From Dehalococcoidia bacterium (GTDB taxonomy: Bacteria; Chloroflexota; Dehalococcoidia; Lucifugimonadales; UBA2962), in assembly GCA_965116605.1 (NCBI GenBank), contig OZ220697.1, forward strand, positions 1,439,013-1,503,012: DNA of 64,000 bases. Direction: 5' to 3'. The position numbers were made by a program, and so were the translations under genes. The notes under the pieces are model-generated. The model saw only the letters and a program-made list of their open reading frames with translations. It did no database searches and had not been told where the DNA came from. Shown piece after piece: positions 26,330 through 40,487 of this stretch; the first letter of the stretch is position 1, and each line of letters begins with the position of its first letter.

Positions 26330-27142
26330 CTACTTGGCCGTCTGGCCTCCGTCCAGGTAGACGATCTGCCCTGTCATGTAGTCGGAGGCGGGACTGGCAA
26401 GGTAGACGGCAAGGAGGCCGAGGTCCCGCAGGTTGCCGGGCACGCCCATCGGTATTCGGGCCATCATGCGAGCTCTCTCGTTCGGGTCGTCCCCGCCGAG
26501 ATCATTCATGCTGGTCCCGAACTCTCCCGGACCTATTGCGTTAACGCGGATGCCATAGGGAGCCCACTCCAGGGCCAGCACGCGGGTCAGCATATTGAGC
26601 GCCGCCTTTGAGGAGTTGTATGCCACCTCGTACTCGAATGCCTGATGGGCGTTGTTCGAAGAGATGTTGATGATCTTGCCGTAGCCGCGCTCAAGCATGC
26701 CCGGCGCAACGGCCCGGCACCCGTACATTGCGGCGCTCGTGTTCGTCGCAAAGACGACGTCCCATTCCTCATCGGTGAATGGGAGATCAGCGATGCGGCT
26801 CACCCGGGGCGGTCCCAGCTCCCTTCCCGGCAGCGGCACCAGAGGAACGCCAATGTGAGCGCCAGCGTTGTTTACGAGGATATCGACCGGACCGAGGCGG
26901 TCCGAGGTTACCTCCACCGCACTGTCCACATCGGAGGACCTTGCCACGTCCGTCGGTATGGCCACCGCCCGCCGACCCAGTTCCCGGATCTCCCCGGCCA
27001 CGTCCTCGATCTCCGAAGCGGTGCGGGCGACCACGGCCAGATCGGCACCGGCCTGCGCCAGGGTCAGGGCGATAGTGCGACCTATGCCCCGGCCTCCGCC
27101 GGTGACCAGCGCCACCCGGCCATCAAGTCTCAACTCATCCAT
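26330..27142 (-). CDS. SDR oxidoreductase
   Basis: TGGGRGIG, NNAG, YNSSK, IRVNAIGPG and YLDGG motifs. Confidence 0.92.
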   Translation of the reverse strand: MDELRLDGRVALVTGGGRGIGRTIALTLAQAGADLAVVARTASEIEDVAGEIRELGRRAVAIPTDVARSSDVDSAVEVTSDRLGPVDILVNNAGAHIGVPLVPLPGRELGPPRVSRIADLPFTDEEWDVVFATNTSAAMYGCRAVAPGMLERGYGKIINISSNNAHQAFEYEVAYNSSKAALNMLTRVLALEWAPYGIRVNAIGPGEFGTSMNDLGGDDPNERARMMARIPMGVPGNLRDLGLLAVYLASPASDYMTGQIVYLDGGQTAK

Positions 27143-27213
27143 CAACGGCCCACCGGTCCCCGGCGCGGGCGCCGAAGCTGCTTACTGATCCCGTCCGATC
27201 CCGTCCGGGGTAC

Positions 27214-28641: not shown

Positions 28642-29127
28642 CTACTCCAGGGTTACGATCCGGTCGCCGCCCTGTACCTGATTGCCGGACTGGACGTGCA
28701 CCTCTCGAACGATGCCTGCCCACTCCGCACGAAGCGTCTGCTGCATCTTCATCGCCTCGAGCACGCAGACCTCGTCTCCGGGAACAACCTGGTCCCCCTG
28801 TTTCACCGCGACCGAGACGATGATGCCCGGCATCGGAGAGCTGAAGACCTTGGTAGGGCCCGCCGGCGGGGCGTGCACAGGCGGCGAGGGAGCTGCCCTT
28901 GCCGGGGTATCGGGCCTGGTCTCCCGTCGCTCAACCGCAGGGGCGGGCGCCTTCGCGGGGACCGTCGGTGCGGCCGCGGGCAATTCCGCGACCTCCTGGC
29001 CGGCGCTGGGAAACTCCACCTGGACTGGCTCTCCGTCGACGATCACCTCGATGGGGTCGGCGTCGATGTCGAGCACCTCCACGTCGTGCCAGCTATCCCC
29101 GATCTTGATGCGCAGCCTTGTACCCAT
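28642..29127 (-). CDS. Stand-alone biotin carboxyl carrier protein (decarboxylase-type)
   Basis: N-terminal beta-hairpins, Ala/Pro linker, SPMPG and biotinylation motif EAMKM. Confidence 0.93.
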   Translation of the reverse strand: MGTRLRIKIGDSWHDVEVLDIDADPIEVIVDGEPVQVEFPSAGQEVAELPAAAPTVPAKAPAPAVERRETRPDTPARAAPSPPVHAPPAGPTKVFSSPMPGIIVSVAVKQGDQVVPGDEVCVLEAMKMQQTLRAEWAGIVREVHVQSGNQVQGGDRIVTLE

Positions 29128-29142
29128 GTGCCGTGCGACCCG

Positions 29143-30303
29143 CTAGCCGAGCAAACTGATGAACACGCCAGCGACCACCGCCGACCCTATCACACCGGCG
29201 ACGTTCGGCCCCAGGGCGTGGTGCAGTAGGAAATTGTTCGGGTTCTCCTGCTGTCCCATGTGGTGGGAGATGCGGGCCGCCATCGGCACAGCAGACACCC
29301 CGGCCGACCCGATGAGCGGGTTGATCTTCTCCTTGAGGAACAGGTTCATCCCCTTGGCAAACAGGATGCCTCCCATGGTCCCGCAGGCGAAGGCGACCAG
29401 CCCCAGCCCCAGTATCAGCAGCGTTTCGATGGAAAAGACAAGTTCCGCCCTGAGTTGCGTACCAACGGTCAGCATCAGGAATATCGTAGCGATGTTGAGA
29501 AGCTCGTTGGAGGCGGCCTGCGTCAGCCTGGGCACCACCCCGCTCTCGCGGAACAGGTTGCCGGCCACGAACATCGCAACGAGCGGGGCCGCCCTGGGAA
29601 CGATGAGCAGGATGATGATCAGCAGGATCACCGGGAACACGAGCTTTTCGGCCTTGGACACCTCCCGGGTGGGCTTCATGACGATCTGGCGTTCCTTCTT
29701 GGTCGTCAGGAGCTTCATGAGCGGGGGCTGGATGAACGGCACGGCCGCCATGTACGTGTAGGCGATCACCGCGGTGATGCCCAGGATCTCGGGCGCCAGC
29801 TTGGCCGAAAGGAAGATGGTCGTCGGCCCGTCAGCCCCGCCGATGATACCGATCGAGGCGGCCTCCCCCAGAGTGAAGCGCCCCGGGTCCAGCTGCGTTA
29901 CGCCCAGCGCACCCCAGAATGCGATGAAGATTCCCACCTGCGCGGCGGCCCCGAGCAGGAGCGTCCTGGGGTTGGCGATCAGCGGGCTGAAGTCCGTCAG
30001 CGCGCCTATGCCGATGAAGATGATCGGTGGCAGGATGTTCCAGAACGACAGCCCGTAGTGGAATATCACGCCCAGGATGCCGGCGTCCTGGACCCCGGTA
30101 CCCTCGGTGGGGGTTATCGCGATGCCCGTAAGAGGCAGGTTGACGATCACTATCCCCAGCCCAATGGGCAGCAGCTCGTAGGGCTCCCACTCCTTGAGGA
30201 CCGCCAGGAATATCAGCACCAGCCCGATGGCCAGCATGACCAGGTTCTGCCAGCTTATGTTGTAGAACCCCGAGGACCTGAGGAAATCGAAGAACTCGGT
30301 CAA
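29143..30303 (-). CDS. oadB: Na+-translocating decarboxylase beta subunit
   Basis: EPYELLPIG, IGALTDF, LLGAAAQ, IGIIGGADGPT, IGSAGVSAVPMAAR and GPNVAGVIGSA signature motifs. Confidence 0.95.
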   Translation of the reverse strand: MTEFFDFLRSSGFYNISWQNLVMLAIGLVLIFLAVLKEWEPYELLPIGLGIVIVNLPLTGIAITPTEGTGVQDAGILGVIFHYGLSFWNILPPIIFIGIGALTDFSPLIANPRTLLLGAAAQVGIFIAFWGALGVTQLDPGRFTLGEAASIGIIGGADGPTTIFLSAKLAPEILGITAVIAYTYMAAVPFIQPPLMKLLTTKKERQIVMKPTREVSKAEKLVFPVILLIIILLIVPRAAPLVAMFVAGNLFRESGVVPRLTQAASNELLNIATIFLMLTVGTQLRAELVFSIETLLILGLGLVAFACGTMGGILFAKGMNLFLKEKINPLIGSAGVSAVPMAARISHHMGQQENPNNFLLHHALGPNVAGVIGSAVVAGVFISLLG

Positions 30304-30333
30304 CTCAACGTCTCCCCGGCCCCGCGTCCCCGA

Positions 30334-30582
30334 TCAATTCTCGCCACGCCCGGAGGCCTCTCGCCTGGCCTTCAGCACACCCACCGCTACAACCGCGGCG
30401 GTGGCTCTCTGGCGTCGCAGGCGCCCTTTGCGCAGGGCGCGCTCGGCTCGCCAGCCCCGCAGGTAAGCGACGGTTGGTCCCAGGATCGTCAGTATGACGA
30501 GCAGAGCGGCCAGGAGGGCAAAGGCGGTGCCCGCACCAATCGCGGTCGTGGTTACGGCCTGCTCCAGAGAGGTCTCTTCGAT
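30334..30582 (-). CDS. OadG/MmdD-like single-TM membrane anchor (start ATC 30582 or TTG 30627)
   Basis: One TM segment (AIGAGTAFALLAALLVILTIL) plus the late helix AAVVAVGV typical of gamma/delta subunits; lies directly upstream of oadB; AGGAGG 6 nt before the ATC. Confidence 0.7.
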   Translation of the reverse strand: MEETSLEQAVTTTAIGAGTAFALLAALLVILTILGPTVAYLRGWRAERALRKGRLRRQRATAAVVAVGVLKARREASGRGEN

Positions 30583-30813
30583 GGCGTGCCTCCTCGGCGA
30601 GGGGTGGAGAATCCACGGTCCGGGCAACTCGCGCGACTCCCGCGTCGCCCGTGCAAAGGCCCGCCGGCGGAGCGGCGCGTGACGGTCGTGATTTTACACC
30701 AAGGCCCCCTCTCCAGCCACCGCCGAGCGCCCGCCGCCCGCAGGACAGGCCGATGTCTACCGCTGGTAACACCGGGGTCCGGGACATATAATCGGGGTTC
30801 CTTTGGAGGGCTT

Positions 30814-31593
30814 ATGAGCGCTGCCAGCACGCAGGGCCGGGTAGATTTCAACAGCGACATCGGCGAGAGCTTCGGCTCCTACAAGATGGGCCTCGACGAG
30901 GAGGTCATAGGCTGCATCAGCTCGGCAAACATCGCCTGCGGCTTTCACGCCGGCGACCCGGGATGGATGCGCCACACGGTCGGCCTGGCCGAGAAAAACG
31001 GCGTCGGAATAGGCGCTCACCCGGCCTTCCCCGACCTGCGGGGCTTCGGCAGGCGGAACATGGTCGTCGATCCGCAGGAGGCCCGCGACGATGTCGTCTA
31101 CCAGATAGGGGCCCTGACCGCCTTTACGAGGGGAAAGCGGCTCCAGCACGTAAAGCCTCATGGCGCCATGTACAACATGGCGGTAAAGGACGAGGCCCTC
31201 GCCCGTGCGATCTGCGAGGCTATACTCGAGGTCGATCAGCGGCTGATCCTGCTTGCCCTGTCGGGCTCGCGCTGGATCGAAATCGCAGAGGAGATGGGCC
31301 TTCGGGTGGCGCGCGAGGTCTTCGCCGACAGGGCGCTCATGCCCGATGGGGCGCTCGCCCCCCGCTCCCGGCCTGGGGCGGTGCTGCACGACGCGGACCA
31401 GATAGCCGAGCGCACTCTCAGGATGGTCACCGAGGGAACCGTCGAGGCGGTCGACGGGTCGGAGGTCGAGGTGGTGGCCGACAGCATCTGCCTGCACGGG
31501 GACACGCCCGGCGCCGTCGCGATGGCGCGTGCGGTGCGCGACACGCTCGAGGGCGCGGGCGTGCAGGTCGTGCCGCTTGAGGAGCTGGTGTAG
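30814..31593 (+). CDS. pxpA: PxpA (LamB/YcsF) family protein
   Basis: DFNSDIGESFG, ANIACGFHAGDP, GAHP, HVKPHGAMYN, EVFADR and ICLHGDTPGA motifs; TATAAT at 30787-30792 and a GGAGG RBS. Confidence 0.93.
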   Translation: MSAASTQGRVDFNSDIGESFGSYKMGLDEEVIGCISSANIACGFHAGDPGWMRHTVGLAEKNGVGIGAHPAFPDLRGFGRRNMVVDPQEARDDVVYQIGALTAFTRGKRLQHVKPHGAMYNMAVKDEALARAICEAILEVDQRLILLALSGSRWIEIAEEMGLRVAREVFADRALMPDGALAPRSRPGAVLHDADQIAERTLRMVTEGTVEAVDGSEVEVVADSICLHGDTPGAVAMARAVRDTLEGAGVQVVPLEELV

Positions 31594-31598
31594 ACGGG

Positions 31599-32357
31599 AT
31601 GTACGAAGCGCCCCGCTTCTTCGAAGCCGGCGATTGTGCACTGGTCGTCGAGCTGGGCGAGACGATCGACCCGGAGATCAACGACCGCGTCCGCGCGCTC
31701 ATGCAGGCCATCGAGCGCCTTGAGGCCCGGGGCATCTCCGACATCGTGCCCTCATACAGGTCGCTCATGATCACCTACGATCCCACCCGGACCTGCCGGG
31801 ACGACCTTGTCGAGATGGTCACACGGGCCGACGGAGACCTGGGCAAGGCCGGGATGGTCGATCGCAGGGTCGTGACCCTGCCGACGCTCTACGGTGGCGA
31901 ACACGGCCCAGACCTTGACCACGTTGCAGAGCACGCTGGAATCGAGGCCGACCAGGTGGTGTCACTGCACAGCGGGGTCGACTACCGCGTCTACATGATC
32001 GGCTTTGCACCCGGCTTCCCCTACCTCGGAGGCCTGCCGCAGCAGCTGGCGACCCCCCGGCTCGCCACGCCCCGCGTGCGCATTCCCGCGGGCTCTGTGG
32101 GGATCGCGGAGTCGCAGACCGGGGTCTATCCCGCGGCAAGCCCCGGGGGATGGCGCCTGATCGGCCGCACCCCGGTGCGGCTCTTCGACCCGGAGCGCGA
32201 TCCCCCCTCCCTGGTCGTCGCCGGGGACTACATAAGGTTTGCGGCCCTCGGATCCGAGGAGGAATACTCAAGGATCGCCGAAGAGGTGGAGGCCGGCGTC
32301 TACCGGCCGGACGTGGCGTCGGCCAGGACCCCGACCTCGGTGCCGGCGGGCGCCTGA
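31599..32357 (+). CDS. pxpB: PxpB (KipI/AHS1, carboxyltransferase-like domain)
   Basis: VPSYRSL, YGGEHGPDL, IGFAPGFPYLG, GSVGIA and SPGGWRLIGRT motifs. Confidence 0.93.
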   Translation: MYEAPRFFEAGDCALVVELGETIDPEINDRVRALMQAIERLEARGISDIVPSYRSLMITYDPTRTCRDDLVEMVTRADGDLGKAGMVDRRVVTLPTLYGGEHGPDLDHVAEHAGIEADQVVSLHSGVDYRVYMIGFAPGFPYLGGLPQQLATPRLATPRVRIPAGSVGIAESQTGVYPAASPGGWRLIGRTPVRLFDPERDPPSLVVAGDYIRFAALGSEEEYSRIAEEVEAGVYRPDVASARTPTSVPAGA

Positions 32358-32370
32358 GCGGATCGGATCC

Positions 32371-33486
32371 ATGAGCCGCCGAGTCATGGAGATACTGGAG
32401 CCGGGGCTCCTTACCACCGTACAGGACACCGGCCGGTTCGGCTACCAGCGATTCGGCGTACCGGTCTCGGGAGCCATGGACCTGTTTTCCCTGAGAGCCG
32501 CCAACGTGCTGGTCGGCAACGACCAGGGCGCCGCCTGCCTTGAGATGACGGTGGTCGGTCCGCGCATCCGATTTCTGGACGACGCGCTGATCGCGCTTAC
32601 GGGCGGAGACCTTGCGGTCCGGGTCGACGGCAGATCGGTTCCGAGATGGCAATCTATGCGGGTCAAAAAGGATTCGGTGCTGACCTCCGACAGCATGGTC
32701 GACGGCATGCGCGCCTACCTGGCCGTTGCCGGTGGCATTGACGTGCCCGAGGTGTTGGGAAGCCGCTCGACCTACATGGCCAGCCGGATAGGCGGACTGA
32801 AAGGTCGGGCGCTAAAGAGCGGCGACGTACTCTCCGCCGCACCCCCGGACCCGGCAAAGCGGCACGAAGAGCGCGGCCTTCCGGAAGACCTCGAGCCGGT
32901 GCACTACGGACACTCCCACGTCATCAGGGCCGTCGTCGGTCCCCAGACCCACGCCTTCAGGCGGGATGCCGTCGATACCCTCTTCGATTCGCGCTACGTT
33001 GTGTCCATCGACTCCGACCGGGTGGGCTACCGGCTGGAGGGACCGCACCTGAGACACGAGAACGGGGCCGACATCATCTCGGACGGCAGTCCCCCGGGGG
33101 CCATCCAGGTGCCCGCCAACGGCATGCCCATCGTACTGATGGCCGACCGCGGCCCAACCGGTGGATACGCAAAGATCGGGACCGTGATATCCACCGATCT
33201 CGGGCGTCTGGCGCAGGCCAGACCCGGCGATACGGTCGCGTTTCGGCAGGTCACGGTCGAAGAGGCGGTGGAGGCGCTGCTGGAGCAGGAGGCGCTGCTT
33301 TACGCTCTGGACCCGGAGATGCTTTCAGGCGCCCCGGAGCCCGTGGCGCGCGCGCTTACGGCCTCCGGCAGCCCCTTGTCTCCAGCCATTCAGGAGGCGG
33401 ACATTTCCCGCCTCGAGACCCGGGTGGCCCGCGCCAGCATCGGTGGAGAAACGCTCGCTGTAGAGATCCTGATCGAGCGCGACTGA
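32371..33486 (+). CDS. pxpC: PxpC (KipA/AHS2, biotin-dependent carboxyltransferase-like domain) with a C-terminal extension
   Basis: PGLLTTVQDTGRFG, GAMD, GSRST, SDRVGYRL, GAIQVP and GGYAKI motifs; ~50 extra C-terminal residues. Confidence 0.92.
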   Translation: MSRRVMEILEPGLLTTVQDTGRFGYQRFGVPVSGAMDLFSLRAANVLVGNDQGAACLEMTVVGPRIRFLDDALIALTGGDLAVRVDGRSVPRWQSMRVKKDSVLTSDSMVDGMRAYLAVAGGIDVPEVLGSRSTYMASRIGGLKGRALKSGDVLSAAPPDPAKRHEERGLPEDLEPVHYGHSHVIRAVVGPQTHAFRRDAVDTLFDSRYVVSIDSDRVGYRLEGPHLRHENGADIISDGSPPGAIQVPANGMPIVLMADRGPTGGYAKIGTVISTDLGRLAQARPGDTVAFRQVTVEEAVEALLEQEALLYALDPEMLSGAPEPVARALTASGSPLSPAIQEADISRLETRVARASIGGETLAVEILIERD

Positions 33487-33490
33487 CCCC

Positions 33491-34108
33491 TTGGGCTGGC
33501 TGCACGATTTATCGGAGTGGCTGCTGGGTTTCGCCGAGAGCGGGTGGGCCGTCGGCATCCTCGCGCTGTCGAGCTTTACCGAGTCGATCTTCAACCCCAT
33601 TCCGCCCGACGCCCTACTGATAGCCGTCGCTATCCCACAGCCTCACAACGCCATCCCGCTGGCCCTGCTGGTCACGGCCTCGTCGGTGGCCGGGGCACTC
33701 GTCGGTCACTGGCTGGGAAAGCGCATCGGCCGCCCGATAGCCGACCGGCTCTTCCCGGAAAGCTACATCACGAGGGCCGAGAGACTGTTCGAGCGCTACG
33801 GGGTCTGGGCGGTGCTGTTTGCGGCCTTCACTCCCATCCCCTACAAGGTTTTCGCGATCCTGGCGGGCGTGCTCGGGTTCGACCGGAGAATCTTCCTTAT
33901 CGCATCGCTCATTGGCCGCGGCGCGCGATTTCTCATGATCGGGGTCCTGATCATGATCTTCGGCGCGCGCATAGAGGCCTTCGTGACCGACAACCTCGAG
34001 GTCGTGACCTGGTCGGTAGGCGGTGCGGTTATCGGCGTCGTAATCGCCGTCACCGCCTACCGACTCTATCGTCTACGCAGGCCGTCCGCCGAGGGCCGGG
34101 CGTCCTAG
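33491..34108 (+). CDS. YqaA/DedA (VTT) family membrane protein
   Basis: ESIFNPIPPD, AFTPIPYKVF and GRGARF motifs; 4 bp after pxpC. Confidence 0.9.
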   Translation: MGWLHDLSEWLLGFAESGWAVGILALSSFTESIFNPIPPDALLIAVAIPQPHNAIPLALLVTASSVAGALVGHWLGKRIGRPIADRLFPESYITRAERLFERYGVWAVLFAAFTPIPYKVFAILAGVLGFDRRIFLIASLIGRGARFLMIGVLIMIFGARIEAFVTDNLEVVTWSVGGAVIGVVIAVTAYRLYRLRRPSAEGRAS

Positions 34109-35813
34109 CGCTCCAGCCAGGAGTTGGCGTAGTAGGGGAAGGCCTTGACCTCGAAGTTCTTGAGGGCAGCCGTAGCCGGGTAGATGCTGTAGAAGATACC
34201 CTCGTACAGCGCAGGGACGTTCTTGTAGAACTCTATCTGCAGCTCATCGAGTAACCGCAACTTCTCGGCATCGTCTGTCGCCTGGGCAAACTGCTTCCTC
34301 AACTCGTGGAGCTTTTCCACCGGGGGCGGGAACAGCGCGTGCTGCGCCCCTATGGCCTCGTGTTCCAGCGGGCTGGTGCTGTTCCAGTGCACGTCCCAGC
34401 TGGTCGCCACGCTGAAGCTCTCGACGTTTCCGAACCTGGTGACGACAGTCGCCCAGTCAAGGGCGGGCATGTCAACGTTCATGCCCATCGCCTCCATCTC
34501 GCTCTTTACGACAAAGCCCGTCGGCGTGATGGTCGAGTAGTCGGTCGGGTTCAGAGGATCAGGGTCTCGCCGGCGTAGCCCGCCTCGGCGAGCAGCCGCT
34601 TTGCCTCTTCCTTGTCGTTGCGGTTGTAGTACTCGTCCGCTCCCGCGTCGGTCTCCCACCTTGTCCCGCAGTAGAAGATCGCGGGGCACAGCGTCCAAAG
34701 CTCCGTCGGCCCGAGCGACGCCATCACGTTGGCGATGTCCAGACCCGTCTGGAAGGCGATGCGCGCGGTGACGTTGTCAAACGGCGGGTTGGCGGGTATG
34801 AGCAGGTTGCTCCTGTGGCCCGGCTTGTAGAGCGGCACCGTGAGGTCCGGGTTCTGGTTCACCCGGTCATAGAAGTCCAGGCCCGCTCCGTCGACCACGT
34901 CCCACTCACCGGTCTCAAGTCCGGCCAGCTTCGTCTCCTCGTCCGGCACCTCAAGCCAGACCAGCTCGTCGATGTAGGCCTTTACCTCGCCGGTGTACAG
35001 GCTCGCCGGCTCGGTCCGCGAAACGAATTCGTCGAAGCGCGCGATCGTTATTCGATCGCCCTGCGACCAGTCGACGAACTTATAGGGGCCTGAGCCGACC
35101 CACTCCGCCGCCGCCTCGCTTGCAGGTAGGCCCTCGTCGAGCCGGGTGGGCATGATGCGCGGGCTGCCATAGGGCTTAGCCAGGCTCATGATCACCGATC
35201 CGGTGGGCTCATTCAGGATGATCTGGAACGACCTGTCGTCGGTCACCACGAACGAGTCGTCGTCCTGGAACTCCCTCATCAGGCCCGCGAGCGCATACCA
35301 GCTGGGCAGCCAGCGCTCGTAGGTGGAGCGCACGTCGTCGGCCGTGACGGGGGTCCCATCGTGGAAGGTAAGCCCGTCACGCAGGGTGAAGCTCCATGTC
35401 AGGCCGTCGTCACTCACATCCCAGCTTTCAACCATTACCGGCTGGTCCTCGATGTTGGCATCCCAGCCGAAGAGGGTCTCGTACATGTGGGAGGCGACCG
35501 CCGTAGTCACATATGCCCCACTGAAGACCGGGTCCAGCGACGGAATGCTGGCCTGCGAGACCACCCTCAGGGTGCCGCCGAACCTGGCGTCCTCCATGGC
35601 ATCCATTGCATCGACCACCTCGGTCGGCTCCGGCTCCATGACATCCTCGACCATGGCCTCTGTAGTGGCGGTGGGCTGCGCCTCCATTACCTCCACGGTG
35701 GGCGTCGGCGCGACGGGCTCGGGCTCTGCTTCCTCGGAAGGCCCGCAGGCCACAACCGCGAACGAAAGCCCGATGACCAGGGCGAATAGTGCTGCAAAAA
35801 AGGTTCTTTTCAT
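34105..35813 (-). CDS. ABC transporter substrate-binding lipoprotein (family 5), split by a 1-bp deletion at ~34555
   Basis: Lipobox VVAC; FGGTL, LDP, FHDGTPVTADDV and GSGPYKF motifs. Adding one C joins GETLIL to LNPTDY...SWLER*. No permease genes adjacent. Confidence 0.88.
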
Positions 35814-37992: not shown

Positions 37993-38742
37993 TCATCTCG
38001 CCGTCAGCCCACCGTCCACGACCAGATGTGAGCCGGTCACATAGGACGACTCGTCCGAGGCCAGGTAGAGCGCCGCGTACGCAATCTCGGCCGGCTCTGC
38101 CAGCCTGCCGAGCGGCACCCTGGCGGTGGACATTGCCCTGCCCTCCTCGCTGGCCAGGTTCTCTGCGATCATCTCCGTCTCTACTGGCCCCGGCACCAGG
38201 GTGTTGGCGCGGATGCCGTCGGCGGCGTGCTGGACGGCCGTGTGCCGCGTAAGCGAGAGCAGGGCGGCCTTGGAGGCGCCGTAGGCGCCGCCCCTCTGGC
38301 TGCCGACCAGCGCGGTGGTTGAGGCGACGTTCACGATCGAGCCCCCGCCCCGCTCGCGCATCACGGGGACCACGCTCCGGGTCCCCAGAAAAGCGCCGCG
38401 GGCATTTACCGCCATAATGCGCGCCCACAGGTCGGCGTCGACGTTCTCTACGGGCTCGGTCTGGTAGATCCCGGCGTTGTTGACCAGCACGTCGATGGAC
38501 CCGAAACGATCCACCGACTCCCGCACCGCCACCTCCCAGTCCCGCTCTTCCGACACGTCCAGCGGCAGGAACAGGGCGGACCCCCCGCCCGCCGCAATCC
38601 CGGACACGACCCCGTGACCCCGCTCCTCCTCAAGGTCTATCACCACCACCCTGGCCCGCTCGCCCGCAAATAGCCTGGCCTGCGCGGACCCGATGTCGCC
38701 CGCCCCGCCGGTCAACAGGGCGACCTTGTCGAGCAACCTCAA
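37993..38742 (-). CDS. SDR oxidoreductase
   Basis: TGGAGDIG, NNAG, YGASK and VVDGG motifs. Confidence 0.92.
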   Translation of the reverse strand: MRLLDKVALLTGGAGDIGSAQARLFAGERARVVVIDLEEERGHGVVSGIAAGGGSALFLPLDVSEERDWEVAVRESVDRFGSIDVLVNNAGIYQTEPVENVDADLWARIMAVNARGAFLGTRSVVPVMRERGGGSIVNVASTTALVGSQRGGAYGASKAALLSLTRHTAVQHAADGIRANTLVPGPVETEMIAENLASEEGRAMSTARVPLGRLAEPAEIAYAALYLASDESSYVTGSHLVVDGGLTAR

Positions 38743-38806
38743 CGCCGCCTCCCGCGCAGATCGATGCGTAAGCGGAACCAGGCGGACCCTGATCCAGGCG
38801 TGAAGA

Positions 38807-39550
38807 TCACTGGGCCGAGTAGCCCCCGTCGACCACGTACTCGGAGCCGGTCACGTAGGACGAGTCGTCCGAGGCCAGGAACATGACCACTTTCGCCACC
38901 TCCTCGGCGGAACCCATGCGTTTCATCGGCACCCTCGAGAGCACCAGGGGTCCCTGCTCCGGATCCTCCATTATGAAGTCGACCATCTTCGTGTCGATCA
39001 GGCCCGGGTGCACCGAGTTGACGCGGATCCCCTCGGCGGCGTAATGGAGGGCGGAGCTCTTTGTGAACAGCCTGACCGCCCCCTTGGAGGCGGTGTAGGC
39101 TCCCTCCAGTGTGTTCCCCACCAGGCCGGCGGTGCTGGAGATGTTGATGATCGATCCGCCTCCCGACCGCCGCATGGACGGGACAACCACCTTGGTCCCG
39201 AGGAACACGCCCCGGGCGTTTATGGCCATTATGTCGTCCCATTCCTCGACCGGGGTCTCGTGAATGACCGTCGTGCGGAAGACCCCGGCGTTGTTGACGA
39301 GCACGTTTACCGGGCCGTAGCGGTCCTCGGCCAGCTCCACCGCCTTTACCCAGTCTTCCTCCCGGGTCACATCGAGGGAACAAGACAGGGCCTGACCTCC
39401 GAGATCCTCGATCTCCCTTGCGACCGACTCCCCGCTCACCACGTCCCCGATCACGACCCTGGCACCCTCGGAGGCGAACATCTTCGCCTCTGTAGCGCCC
39501 ATCGCCCCGGCGCCCCCGCTGATTATGGCTACTTTCCCCTCAAGCCTCAT
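38807..39550 (-). CDS. SDR oxidoreductase (3alpha,20beta-HSD-like)
   Basis: SGGAGAMG, NNAG, YTASKGAVR and IRVNSVHPG motifs; GAGGAGG RBS before ATG 39550. Confidence 0.92.
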   Translation of the reverse strand: MRLEGKVAIISGGAGAMGATEAKMFASEGARVVIGDVVSGESVAREIEDLGGQALSCSLDVTREEDWVKAVELAEDRYGPVNVLVNNAGVFRTTVIHETPVEEWDDIMAINARGVFLGTKVVVPSMRRSGGGSIINISSTAGLVGNTLEGAYTASKGAVRLFTKSSALHYAAEGIRVNSVHPGLIDTKMVDFIMEDPEQGPLVLSRVPMKRMGSAEEVAKVVMFLASDDSSYVTGSEYVVDGGYSAQ

Positions 39551-39654
39551 TTCACTACCCTCCTCGTCTCGGCCGCGCCATCTTCGGCGGACGGCCGGGC
39601 TCACCTGACCCTAGCTTAGCGTCGCACAGCTGGCCCGCTAAACCCCTGCGCACC

Positions 39655-40419
39655 CTACCGGGCGGTCCAGCCCCCATCGATAACCAGCTCGGCCCCTGTC
39701 ATGTAGGACGATTCGTCGGAGGCCAGGAACAGCACGCCGTAGGCGATCTCTTCCGGCTCGGCCATTCGGCCCATTGGGTGCTCGGTGTCGAACCGCTTTA
39801 CGTGGGCCGGCTGGTATGCCTCCCACAGCATCGGGGTATCGACGGGACCCGGAAAGACCGTGTTGACCCTGATGCACTCTGAGGCGAACTGCATGGCCGC
39901 CGAGCGGGCAAGGCTACGCACCGCCCCCTTCGAGGCGTGGTAAGCAGCGGCAAGTTCGCCTGCCGCGATGGCGGAAATCGAAGCAACATTCACGATCGAA
40001 CCGCCCCCAGCGGCCCTCATCGACGGAACGGCATGCTTCATGCCCAGGAAGACGCCCGCGGCGTTGACGGACATCAGCCGGTCCCACTCCTCGATCGTCG
40101 TCTCGGCGATTCGATGGGGCGAGAGGATGCCGGCGTTGTTGACCAGCACATCGAGTGAGCCGAACCTCGATGCGGTAGCCCGAACCGCCTGCTCCCAGTC
40201 AGCCTCCCTGCTCACGTCGAGGGGGTAGAACATGGCCGTTCCTCCCCCGTGCTCCTCGTTTATCCCGCCGGCCACGGCCACTCCCTCGCCGGCGAGAGTG
40301 TCGCAGACAACCACCTTCGCGCCCTCGCCAGCGAATATCCTCGCCTCGGCCGAGCCCTGTCCTCGCGCCGCGCCGGTTATCAGCGCCACCTTGCCCTTCA
40401 GCCTGCCGTATCCACTCAC
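39655..40419 (-). CDS. SDR oxidoreductase (3alpha,20beta-HSD-like)
   Basis: TGAARGQG, NNAG, YHASKGAVR and VIDGG motifs; GTG start 7 nt after TAGTAT. Confidence 0.9.
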   Translation of the reverse strand: MSGYGRLKGKVALITGAARGQGSAEARIFAGEGAKVVVCDTLAGEGVAVAGGINEEHGGGTAMFYPLDVSREADWEQAVRATASRFGSLDVLVNNAGILSPHRIAETTIEEWDRLMSVNAAGVFLGMKHAVPSMRAAGGGSIVNVASISAIAAGELAAAYHASKGAVRSLARSAAMQFASECIRVNTVFPGPVDTPMLWEAYQPAHVKRFDTEHPMGRMAEPEEIAYGVLFLASDESSYMTGAELVIDGGWTAR

Positions 40420-40487
40420 AAAACGCATACTACCGCCGCCACCGACCCTGCTTCAACGATCTCCGTGAGCGAGACGGGCTCAAGCGG

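Follow-up and report, generated by a model that had tools for sequence, protein, structure and literature searches.

Na+-translocating biotin decarboxylases are recognized by a β subunit (OadB) with Na+-site and catalytic residues, a membrane anchor with a docking helix, a biotin carrier with an MKM motif and its ligase, and a canonical carboxyltransferase α subunit within the same operon. That they can run in reverse is known from experiments in vitro, whereas in vivo a 2026 survey still counts this among the things awaiting verification (PMC13147460). In urea carboxylase, whose carboxyltransferase is homologous to the PxpB and PxpC subunits of the predicted lactamase PxpABC, the logic is to N-carboxylate the substrate and then hydrolyse it (PMC5770610). 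Here we describe a locus that brings these systems together. In a stretch of 64,000 nucleotides from a Dehalococcoidia bacterium (assembly GCA_965116605.1, contig OZ220697.1, positions 1,439,013 to 1,503,012; hereafter the window), a minus-strand operon of an oadG-like gene, oadB and a stand-alone biotin carrier faces pxpA, pxpB, pxpC and dedA. The arrangement is real and conserved, and it is assembled from known parts. The explanation towards which we lean, with modest confidence, is that OadG, OadB and the carrier form a shared membrane biotin hub that replaces biotin carboxylase (BC), and that PxpBC is a fourth carboxyltransferase, docked to this hub and accepting CO2 from carboxybiotin. 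The features of the locus, in window coordinates, are as follows.

28642..29127, minus strand: stand-alone biotin carrier of 161 residues (PF00364; AMKM motif with Lys127)
29143..30303, minus strand: oadB, Na+-translocating carboxybiotin decarboxylase β subunit of 386 residues (PF03977, E 2.6e-142; TIGR01109, 473.8 bits, cut-off 190.6)
30334..30582, minus strand: oadG/MmdD-like small subunit of 82 residues (predicted transmembrane helix and Ala-rich C-terminal docking helix)
30583..30813, no strand: divergent intergenic region of 231 bp between the oadG and pxpA starts
30814..31593, plus strand: pxpA, LamB/YcsF family, predicted ring-opening subunit (PF03746, E 6.8e-101; NF003814, 377.6 bits, cut-off 226; PH0986, E 1.6e-95)
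31599..32357, plus strand: pxpB, carboxyltransferase subdomains C/D (PF02682; TIGR00370, 217.2 bits, cut-off 145.55)
32371..33486, plus strand: pxpC, carboxyltransferase subdomains A/B with a C-terminal extension of ~70 residues (PF02626; TIGR00724, 326 bits, cut-off 230.2)
33412..33477, plus strand: PxpC terminal β-hairpin, residues 348-369, candidate docking element (predicted structure and comparison)
33491..34108, plus strand: dedA/VTT membrane protein (PF09335), generally downstream of pxpC in the lineage

All seven genes lie where an earlier note on this DNA had placed them (28642..34108), and the gap that it had put at ~230 bp measures 231 bp. A TATAAT hexamer at 30787-30792 precedes pxpA and a minus-strand TAAAAT lies at about 30692-30697, both spotted by eye; a scan for sigma-70 promoters and terminators gave no full promoter and no terminator. 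Three elements of a Na+-translocating biotin decarboxylase are present, namely the β subunit with its residues, the anchor with its docking helix, and the MKM carrier with a ligase (a BirA motif only), and the canonical α subunit within the same operon is absent. Aligned to PDB 6IVA, OadB retains E40, D203 (D158), Y229 (Y184), R304 (R259), N311 (N266), N373 (N328), G377 (G332), S382 (S337), N412 (N367) and S419 (S374), the residues checked being those found important in the Salmonella structure paper (PMC7274780). No second oadB was detected genome-wide. The carrier consists of an N-terminal double β-hairpin anchor (residues 1-40), a Pro/Ala linker and a biotinyl domain with Lys127; altered biotinylation motifs (AIKL and a GAKE-like form) occur in the oadB-linked carriers of loci L010 (genome G006) and L023 (genome G052). 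PxpC scores under the NF045499 PxpC equivalog cut-off (268.7 of 500) and above that of TIGR00724. Its predicted model, with a predicted local distance difference test score (pLDDT) of 88.9, gives Foldseek matches to YbgK, urea carboxylase and MSMEG_0435, with a template modelling score of 0.94 to 5dud_A. The closest named records are metagenome-assembled genomes of Dehalococcoidia, the top identity being 76% (PxpC).

The oadG-like gene has no family match in Pfam or NCBIfam and was assigned by pattern and position; its product can be aligned with 24 homologues located upstream of oadB in relatives. Its start (30582-30580, minus strand) reads ATC after AGGAGG, a probable non-AUG start. ATC or ATA stands at this position in 12 of 24 sequences compared, and ATG, GTG or TTG in four others; in loci L009, L017 and L030 an in-frame stop lies directly upstream, with no ATG, GTG or TTG between. 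A non-AUG start may keep the anchor subunit scarce.

The earlier note had proposed that the α subunit is missing. This holds for the window, inside which whole-genome searches gave no match to OadA, an acyl-CoA carboxyltransferase or BC, and it fails for the genome (2.72 Mb, one contig, 96.65% complete). A PccB/MmdA-type carboxyltransferase is encoded at C1:1356092-1357657, ~110 kb from the locus, followed by a small epsilon-like frame and then by an OadA/PycB-like protein that carries a hairpin and a biotin domain of its own and is adjoined by frames reading as tricarboxylic acid cycle genes. Both proteins fall under the oadA and mmdA model cut-offs. An AccD-AccA fusion elsewhere is the third carboxyltransferase outside the locus. 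The genome search for oadA, mmdA and accC thus found canonical α subunits, which the earlier note had itself named as speaking against its proposal, and no BC: neither of the two BC domains searched gave a match genome-wide at 96.65% completeness. Only two AMKM carriers are encoded, that of the locus and OadA's own. Since AccD-AccA, FabD, KASII motifs, a BirA motif and methylmalonyl-CoA mutase are present and BC was not found, the cell likely needs carboxybiotin and makes it without the usual ATP step.

OadB and BC appear as alternatives across the 151 genomes of the host's order that make up our survey set. Of these, 73 have oadB only, 47 BC only, 26 both and five neither, and by family majority the numbers are 28, 21, 10 and two of 61 families, respectively. 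When 16 BC loci in oadB-bearing genomes were read, seven paired BC with a hairpin carrier and nine were other carboxylases. Among the matches listed, 140 full-length hairpin carriers from 131 genomes remained after 10 of 150 (OadA C-termini) were dropped and 107 weaker ones excluded; 79 stand beside oadB, 45 beside BC and 16 alone, and the two arrangements occur together in only eight genomes. In the same matches the BC-carrier pair is found in only 3 of 86 OadA genomes. Three genomes of family f13 (G012, G069 and G105), each with 10-13 PF02436 matches of ~500 residues that suggest an expanded OadA-related family, are left out of the OadA counts among carrier matches and included in the count for linked genomes given below. 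The pattern says that oadB and BC largely exclude each other across the order, and that OadG-OadB with OadA takes the place of BC. The BCs that are paired with a hairpin carrier end in an OadG-like Ala-rich helix, mostly as judged by eye; a hidden Markov model (HMM) of the OadG helix placed the BC tails of genomes G046 (E 2.4e-5) and G017 (E 0.009) at the top among 4290 frames. A match of this HMM near pccB was discounted, as it lies on the antisense strand. The near-complete relatives G077, G137 and G142 (96-98%, one contig each) have oadB, yet no BC or OadA match, and PccB fed by methylmalonyl-CoA could be the carboxybiotin donor there. Thermotoga maritima is the sole control genome without a BC match; OadB was found in it and in one other control, OadA is encoded as well, and the same swap may exist there.

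The linkage of oadB with the pxp genes, defined as oadB and pxpC within 20 kb, is kept in relatives. In the survey set oadB is found in 99 genomes, pxpC in 92 and both in 81. Of the last, 58 have the two genes linked, 10 have them distant on one contig and 13 on separate contigs; 54 of the linked pairs are divergent and four lie on the same strand. By family, linkage occurs in 28 of the 35 that have both genes. This is far above chance, although related genomes are not independent, and the counts reflect old inheritance and retention, not 58 events. Of the 58 linked genomes, 44 also have an OadA match. A second linkage is found in Halobacteroidaceae, where two of the three genomes with both genes have them linked, among 19 genomes of that order. 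In these two, Natroniella acetigena and G215, the carrier and oadB lie directly upstream of the pxp genes on one strand (oadG was read in Natroniella), and their PxpC proteins belong to another clade; the Halobacteroidaceae linkage is a separate origin. Both genomes have BC, with an OadA-like gene adjoining it, and no MmdA was found in either. The locus of N. acetigena Z-7937 (L111:493-8020, plus strand) reads oadG-carrier-oadB, pxpA, two genes, pxpB and a tailed pxpC; the two intervening genes are an unannotated frame of 263 residues and a transporter-like membrane protein. Among the literature matches listed, which mostly come from outside subscription journals, none links oadB or oadG with pxpABC.

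The physical basis of this association may lie in the C-terminal extension of PxpC. Some 65-70 extra β-hairpin residues are present, by eye, on 34 of 38 PxpC proteins of the order. G028 and G034, which have neither oadB nor oadA, show no tail, nor does the BC-linked second cluster of G049, and G036 is ambiguous. A profile of the tail compared with the N-terminal hairpins of the carriers gave an hhalign probability of 81% (E 1.2e-5), and AlphaFold predicts a terminal hairpin in the shortened PxpC of the window and an all-β tail in one relative. A joint in which four β-hairpins surround a small-subunit helix is a known docking element in AccA3/AccE5 (PMC13612425), and hairpins around the helix of a small subunit are also described in PMC7274780. 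In the docking proposed here, the carrier hairpins and the PxpC tail would wrap the Ala-rich helix of OadG. A three-chain model of the OadG helix, the carrier N-terminus and the PxpC tail weakly supports this, with a score of 0.48 against 0.02 for the best control, contact agreement of at least 71% and partner pLDDT of at least 44. Of 157 solved complexes, 116 reached the mark used for such models, as did 2 of 215 mismatches; at scores of 0.60 or below it was reached by 18 of the 157 and by both mismatches. The isolated tail had no Pfam match, a best ESM Atlas value of 0.86, no Foldseek hit with E <0.001 and a best Z of 3.1 in a wide VIA-align search, which does not imply a new fold. That the tail is specific to oadB-linked PxpC was ruled out, since genomes of the order in which the two genes are unlinked, or in which oadB was not found, have it too. 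Far beyond Chloroflexota a single C-terminal PxpC hairpin is common, read by eye in 23 of 80 loci (L095-L164; anaerobic Bacillota, Synergistota and others). Alphaproteobacterial PxpC proteins carry a different conserved tail (NLISG-like).

Three further observations are independent signs that PxpBC works with biotin. In Methylomirabilota, PxpB, PxpC and a carrier are fused in one frame behind pxpA (L151:5321-8266, plus strand), in a genome with BC and no oadB match; this fusion adjoins a branched-chain-type ABC transporter and a glutamate dehydrogenase-like gene. Two pxp clusters, L045 and L150, contain BC. In the cryo-electron microscopy structure of MSMEG_0435-0436, two carrier domains are bound by the PxpC homologue of M. 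smegmatis, together with one biotin "positioned to participate in a carboxylation reaction" (PMC13012033). Together with the conserved linkage and the PxpC tail, the fusion and the mycobacterial structure support the earlier suggestion that PxpBC is functionally tied to the carrier/OadG module.

The docking evidence would fit equally well if PxpBC were a docked regulator, restraining the biotin arm and so limiting either the passage of carboxyl groups or the pump, with any lactamase activity being separate. MSMEG_0435-0436 is described as sequestering biotin and lowering propionyl-CoA carboxylase activity (PMC13012033), which favors such a role. We nevertheless regard it as improbable. In all 33 pxpC loci read from the order pxpA adjoins pxpB/C, which points to a catalytic pathway. 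PxpC also keeps the invariant R217, Q246, D259 and G264-G265-Y266, which align with the urea carboxylase carboxyltransferase and which we take to be catalytic positions.

An ordinary explanation can also be given for the parts of this locus: the membrane half of a normal oxaloacetate and methylmalonyl-CoA decarboxylase with distant α subunits, beside a normal ATP-dependent 5-oxoprolinase that neighbors it by inheritance or co-regulation. The OadA-like and PccB/MmdA-type genes of the genome agree with this, as does the presence of OadA in 64 of the 78 genomes with an oadB-linked carrier among the matches listed and of a PF01039 match in 151/151 genomes; PxpA and PxpB score above their NCBIfam cut-offs. 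The metabolic genes agree as well. Malate synthase, an isocitrate lyase (ICL) motif and a pyruvate phosphate dikinase (PPDK) motif were detected, and no phosphoenolpyruvate (PEP) carboxylase, neither of the PEP carboxykinases (PEPCK) and no malic enzyme was found in the genome. Because the genome has the glyoxylate shunt and no PEPCK or malic enzyme match, OadA with OadB in the forward direction would be the only route from oxaloacetate to pyruvate, and thus the sole C4-to-C3 route. This explanation accounts neither for the carrier-like PxpC tail nor for the fact that genomes with neither oadB nor oadA are without it. It also leaves unexplained why the linkage arose a second time in Halobacteroidaceae, in which MmdA was not found, why PxpBC is fused to a carrier, and why in genome G046 the carrier stands beside pxpA without oadGB. 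PxpA, PxpB and PxpC also lack a Walker A motif, although this is a weak test. Overall we judge it unlikely.

The direction of carboxyl transfer is a separate question. The earlier note had proposed that PxpBC is the missing carboxyltransferase. It would take the carboxyl group off an N-carboxy compound such as allophanate or carboxyguanidine and load it on the carrier for OadB to decarboxylate while pumping Na+, which would be a new class of substrate for such pumps. Carboxyltransfer is reversible, and in Natroniella and G215 oadG-carrier-oadB lead into the pxp genes. Because no MmdA was found there, BC is present and the only OadA-like gene, read as a pyruvate carboxylase, stands beside it, a decarboxylating role is possible in these two genomes. 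For the locus in the window several observations speak against it. Canonical α subunits are encoded in the genome, and the annotated genes of the window include no source of an N-carboxy substrate. Among relatives in which oadB was not found, nine genomes have tailed PxpABC with OadA (tails were read in seven). In G046 pxpABC, with a tailed PxpC, is divergent from a carrier with no oadG or oadB between, its BC elsewhere bears an OadG-like helix, and the carrier nests in the oadB-linked clade (support 99/97). G053 has no oadB match; a soluble OadG remnant of two helices precedes its carrier, and tailed PxpABC lies ~30 kb away. This remnant (L201:4913-5686, plus strand) has no membrane anchor and two tandem docking helices, and G024 (L202) encodes a similar one-helix peptide. 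In family f41 a tailed PxpC occurs with OadA and PccB, and oadB was not found. We argue from these natural deletions, in genomes mostly 96-99% complete, that supplying the pump is not what PxpBC is there for. The energetics agree: the equilibrium constant for 5-oxoproline to glutamate is 0.035 (PMC13274462), which we compute as +8.3 kJ/mol. If the substrate is a lactam its hydrolysis is uphill; the reaction has to be driven, for instance by N-carboxylation, and has no energy to give to a pump. With OadA in 44/58 linked genomes in addition, the direction first proposed is probably wrong, and we hold that reading to be decidedly improbable.

In the shared-hub explanation PxpBC would transfer the carboxyl group from carboxybiotin to a lactam, most probably 5-oxoproline, at its ring nitrogen, by analogy with urea carboxylase acting on urea. 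PxpA would open the N-carboxylated ring, and the resulting carbamate would break into glutamate and CO2. Carboxybiotin may be supplied in two ways, both of which may occur. OadA could charge the carrier from oxaloacetate without ATP, with OadB pumping Na+ on the surplus, and carboxybiotin from this forward route could also serve AccD-A, PccB and PxpBC. Alternatively, OadB reversed on the Na+ gradient would make carboxybiotin without ATP. Pyruvate carboxylation is given as +31.5 kJ/mol compared to –46 kJ/mol for two Na+ entering, with in vivo reversal described as unverified (PMC13147460). A requirement for reverse OadB through absent anaplerosis was ruled out, as malate synthase and the ICL motif indicate that oxaloacetate can be made from acetyl-CoA, and OadA could charge the carrier. 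A Na+-type membrane pyrophosphatase is encoded at C1:1348012-1350045 (L004:13-2043), ~6 kb from pccB-oadA, and is a possible source of a Na+ gradient; the ATP synthase c ring presumably is of the H+ type, judging from its motif. The earlier idea that an ion gradient stands in for ATP may hold, in that it fits the exclusion between oadB and BC, but OadA could supply carboxybiotin from oxaloacetate instead. We propose only tentatively, as a doubtful possibility, that a large Dehalococcoidia lineage replaced ATP-dependent BC by a reversed Na+ pump. The Na+ gradient would then load CO2 on a common carrier, from which AccD-A in fatty-acid synthesis, the carboxylation of propionyl-CoA and pyruvate, and a PxpABC lactamase dependent on biotin would all be supplied.

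Several points weigh against the shared hub with a docked PxpBC. The linkage is broken in 10 of the 68 genomes that have both genes on one contig, and 18 genomes have oadB without pxpC and 11 pxpC without oadB. The PxpC tail of the window is itself shortened, lacking the first hairpin that is present in most relatives. The score of the three-chain model falls in the range where passes are often wrong, and across 35 BC loci the OadG-helix HMM is clear on only two BC tails, the rest being by eye. Outside the order the tail tracks oadB only loosely (22/23 compared to 17/27), a comparison that is confounded by anaerobic lifestyle and uses 50 loci out of 80, those set aside being 15 tailed loci of Dehalococcoidia/Chloroflexota, 14 proteobacterial loci and one acidobacterial locus. 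The 2017 paper that discovered PxpABC is said to have rebuilt the activity from recombinant PxpA, PxpB and PxpC. PxpABC is described as ATP-dependent, phosphorylation of 5-oxoproline being the 'assumed' task of PxpB/C (PMC13274462). In mycobacteria the homologue reduced the activity of the carboxylase and is reported to show no urea carboxylase activity (PMC13012033). Finally, a P. putida PxpABC paralogue is reported to be inactive on 5-oxoproline (10.1101/2021.12.09.472016), and because of this the substrate is uncertain.

Beyond dedA, the window contains a family-5 solute-binding protein gene that reads as two overlapping frames, 34551-35813 and 34105-34698 (34105-35813, minus strand), possibly through a frameshift or sequencing error; a similar split is apparent near C1:2349363-2352761 in the genes for pyruvate dehydrogenase E2 and E1-alpha. 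Three tandem short-chain dehydrogenase genes lie at 37993-40428 (minus strand) and a fourth at 26330-27145.

The locus makes two questions testable. The first is whether Na+-pumping decarboxylases act as carboxylases in living cells, given a whole lineage that swaps OadG-OadB for BC with the same carrier family. The second is how PxpABC, among the commonest prokaryotic repair enzymes, is energised; the locus, the PxpBC-carrier fusion and the 2026 cryo-electron microscopy structure point to biotin. Natroniella acetigena is a named strain with the linked arrangement. If the reversed pump proved true, it would constitute physiological CO2 fixation driven by an ion gradient, and PxpABC at large would act through N-carboxylation and not lactam phosphorylation.

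Among known systems, the locus resembles the Na+-translocating decarboxylases (OadABG, PDB 6IVA/6IWW; MmdABCDE; GcdABCD; Mad) in its OadB with the tested Na+ and catalytic residues and in its small anchor with a C-terminal helix. Its carrier resembles GcdC, which is likewise free with an N-terminal anchor and a Pro/Ala linker (PMC7274780, PMC7145394). In contrast to these decarboxylases, its operon has no α subunit, two α subunits are encoded elsewhere, and it is linked to a carboxyltransferase pair of the urea carboxylase type. The carrier, moreover, belongs to a family that partners BC in sister genomes, and BC was not found here. From known PxpABC (YbgL/J/K, KipI/KipA; PDB 5DUD, 3MML), with which it shares PxpA and PxpB above NCBIfam cut-offs and a PxpC with the YbgK fold, it differs in the PxpC tail beyond the part that matches solved homologues, in the linkage to a carrier and OadB, and in the proposed energy source, which would be carboxybiotin and not direct use of ATP. 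Urea carboxylase and urea amidolyase (K. lactis, PDB 3VA7, 5I8I) have a homologous carboxyltransferase fold and the same proposed logic, whereas the locus has no BC domain, a split carboxyltransferase, and PxpA as hydrolase in place of allophanate hydrolase. In our own reading of the alignment the D1321 and Y1324 positions of urea carboxylase are not retained in the locus protein. The region around the general base Lys1605 is unaligned with PxpB, and TIGR02712 scores far under its cut-off. The M. smegmatis long-chain acyl-CoA carboxylase with MSMEG_0435-0436 (PDB 9YX5) provides a PxpC/PxpB pair that binds carrier domains and biotin; unlike our locus, that complex is soluble and ATP/BC-driven, its pair is inhibitory, and it has no membrane pump. 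The transcarboxylase of Propionibacterium is composed of 12S, 5S and 1.3S subunits. As in transcarboxylase, PccB-like and OadA-like proteins in the genome of the locus, sharing carriers without BC, could exchange carboxyl groups of oxaloacetate and acyl-CoAs; a membrane OadB and a further, third type of carboxyltransferase are what the present system adds.

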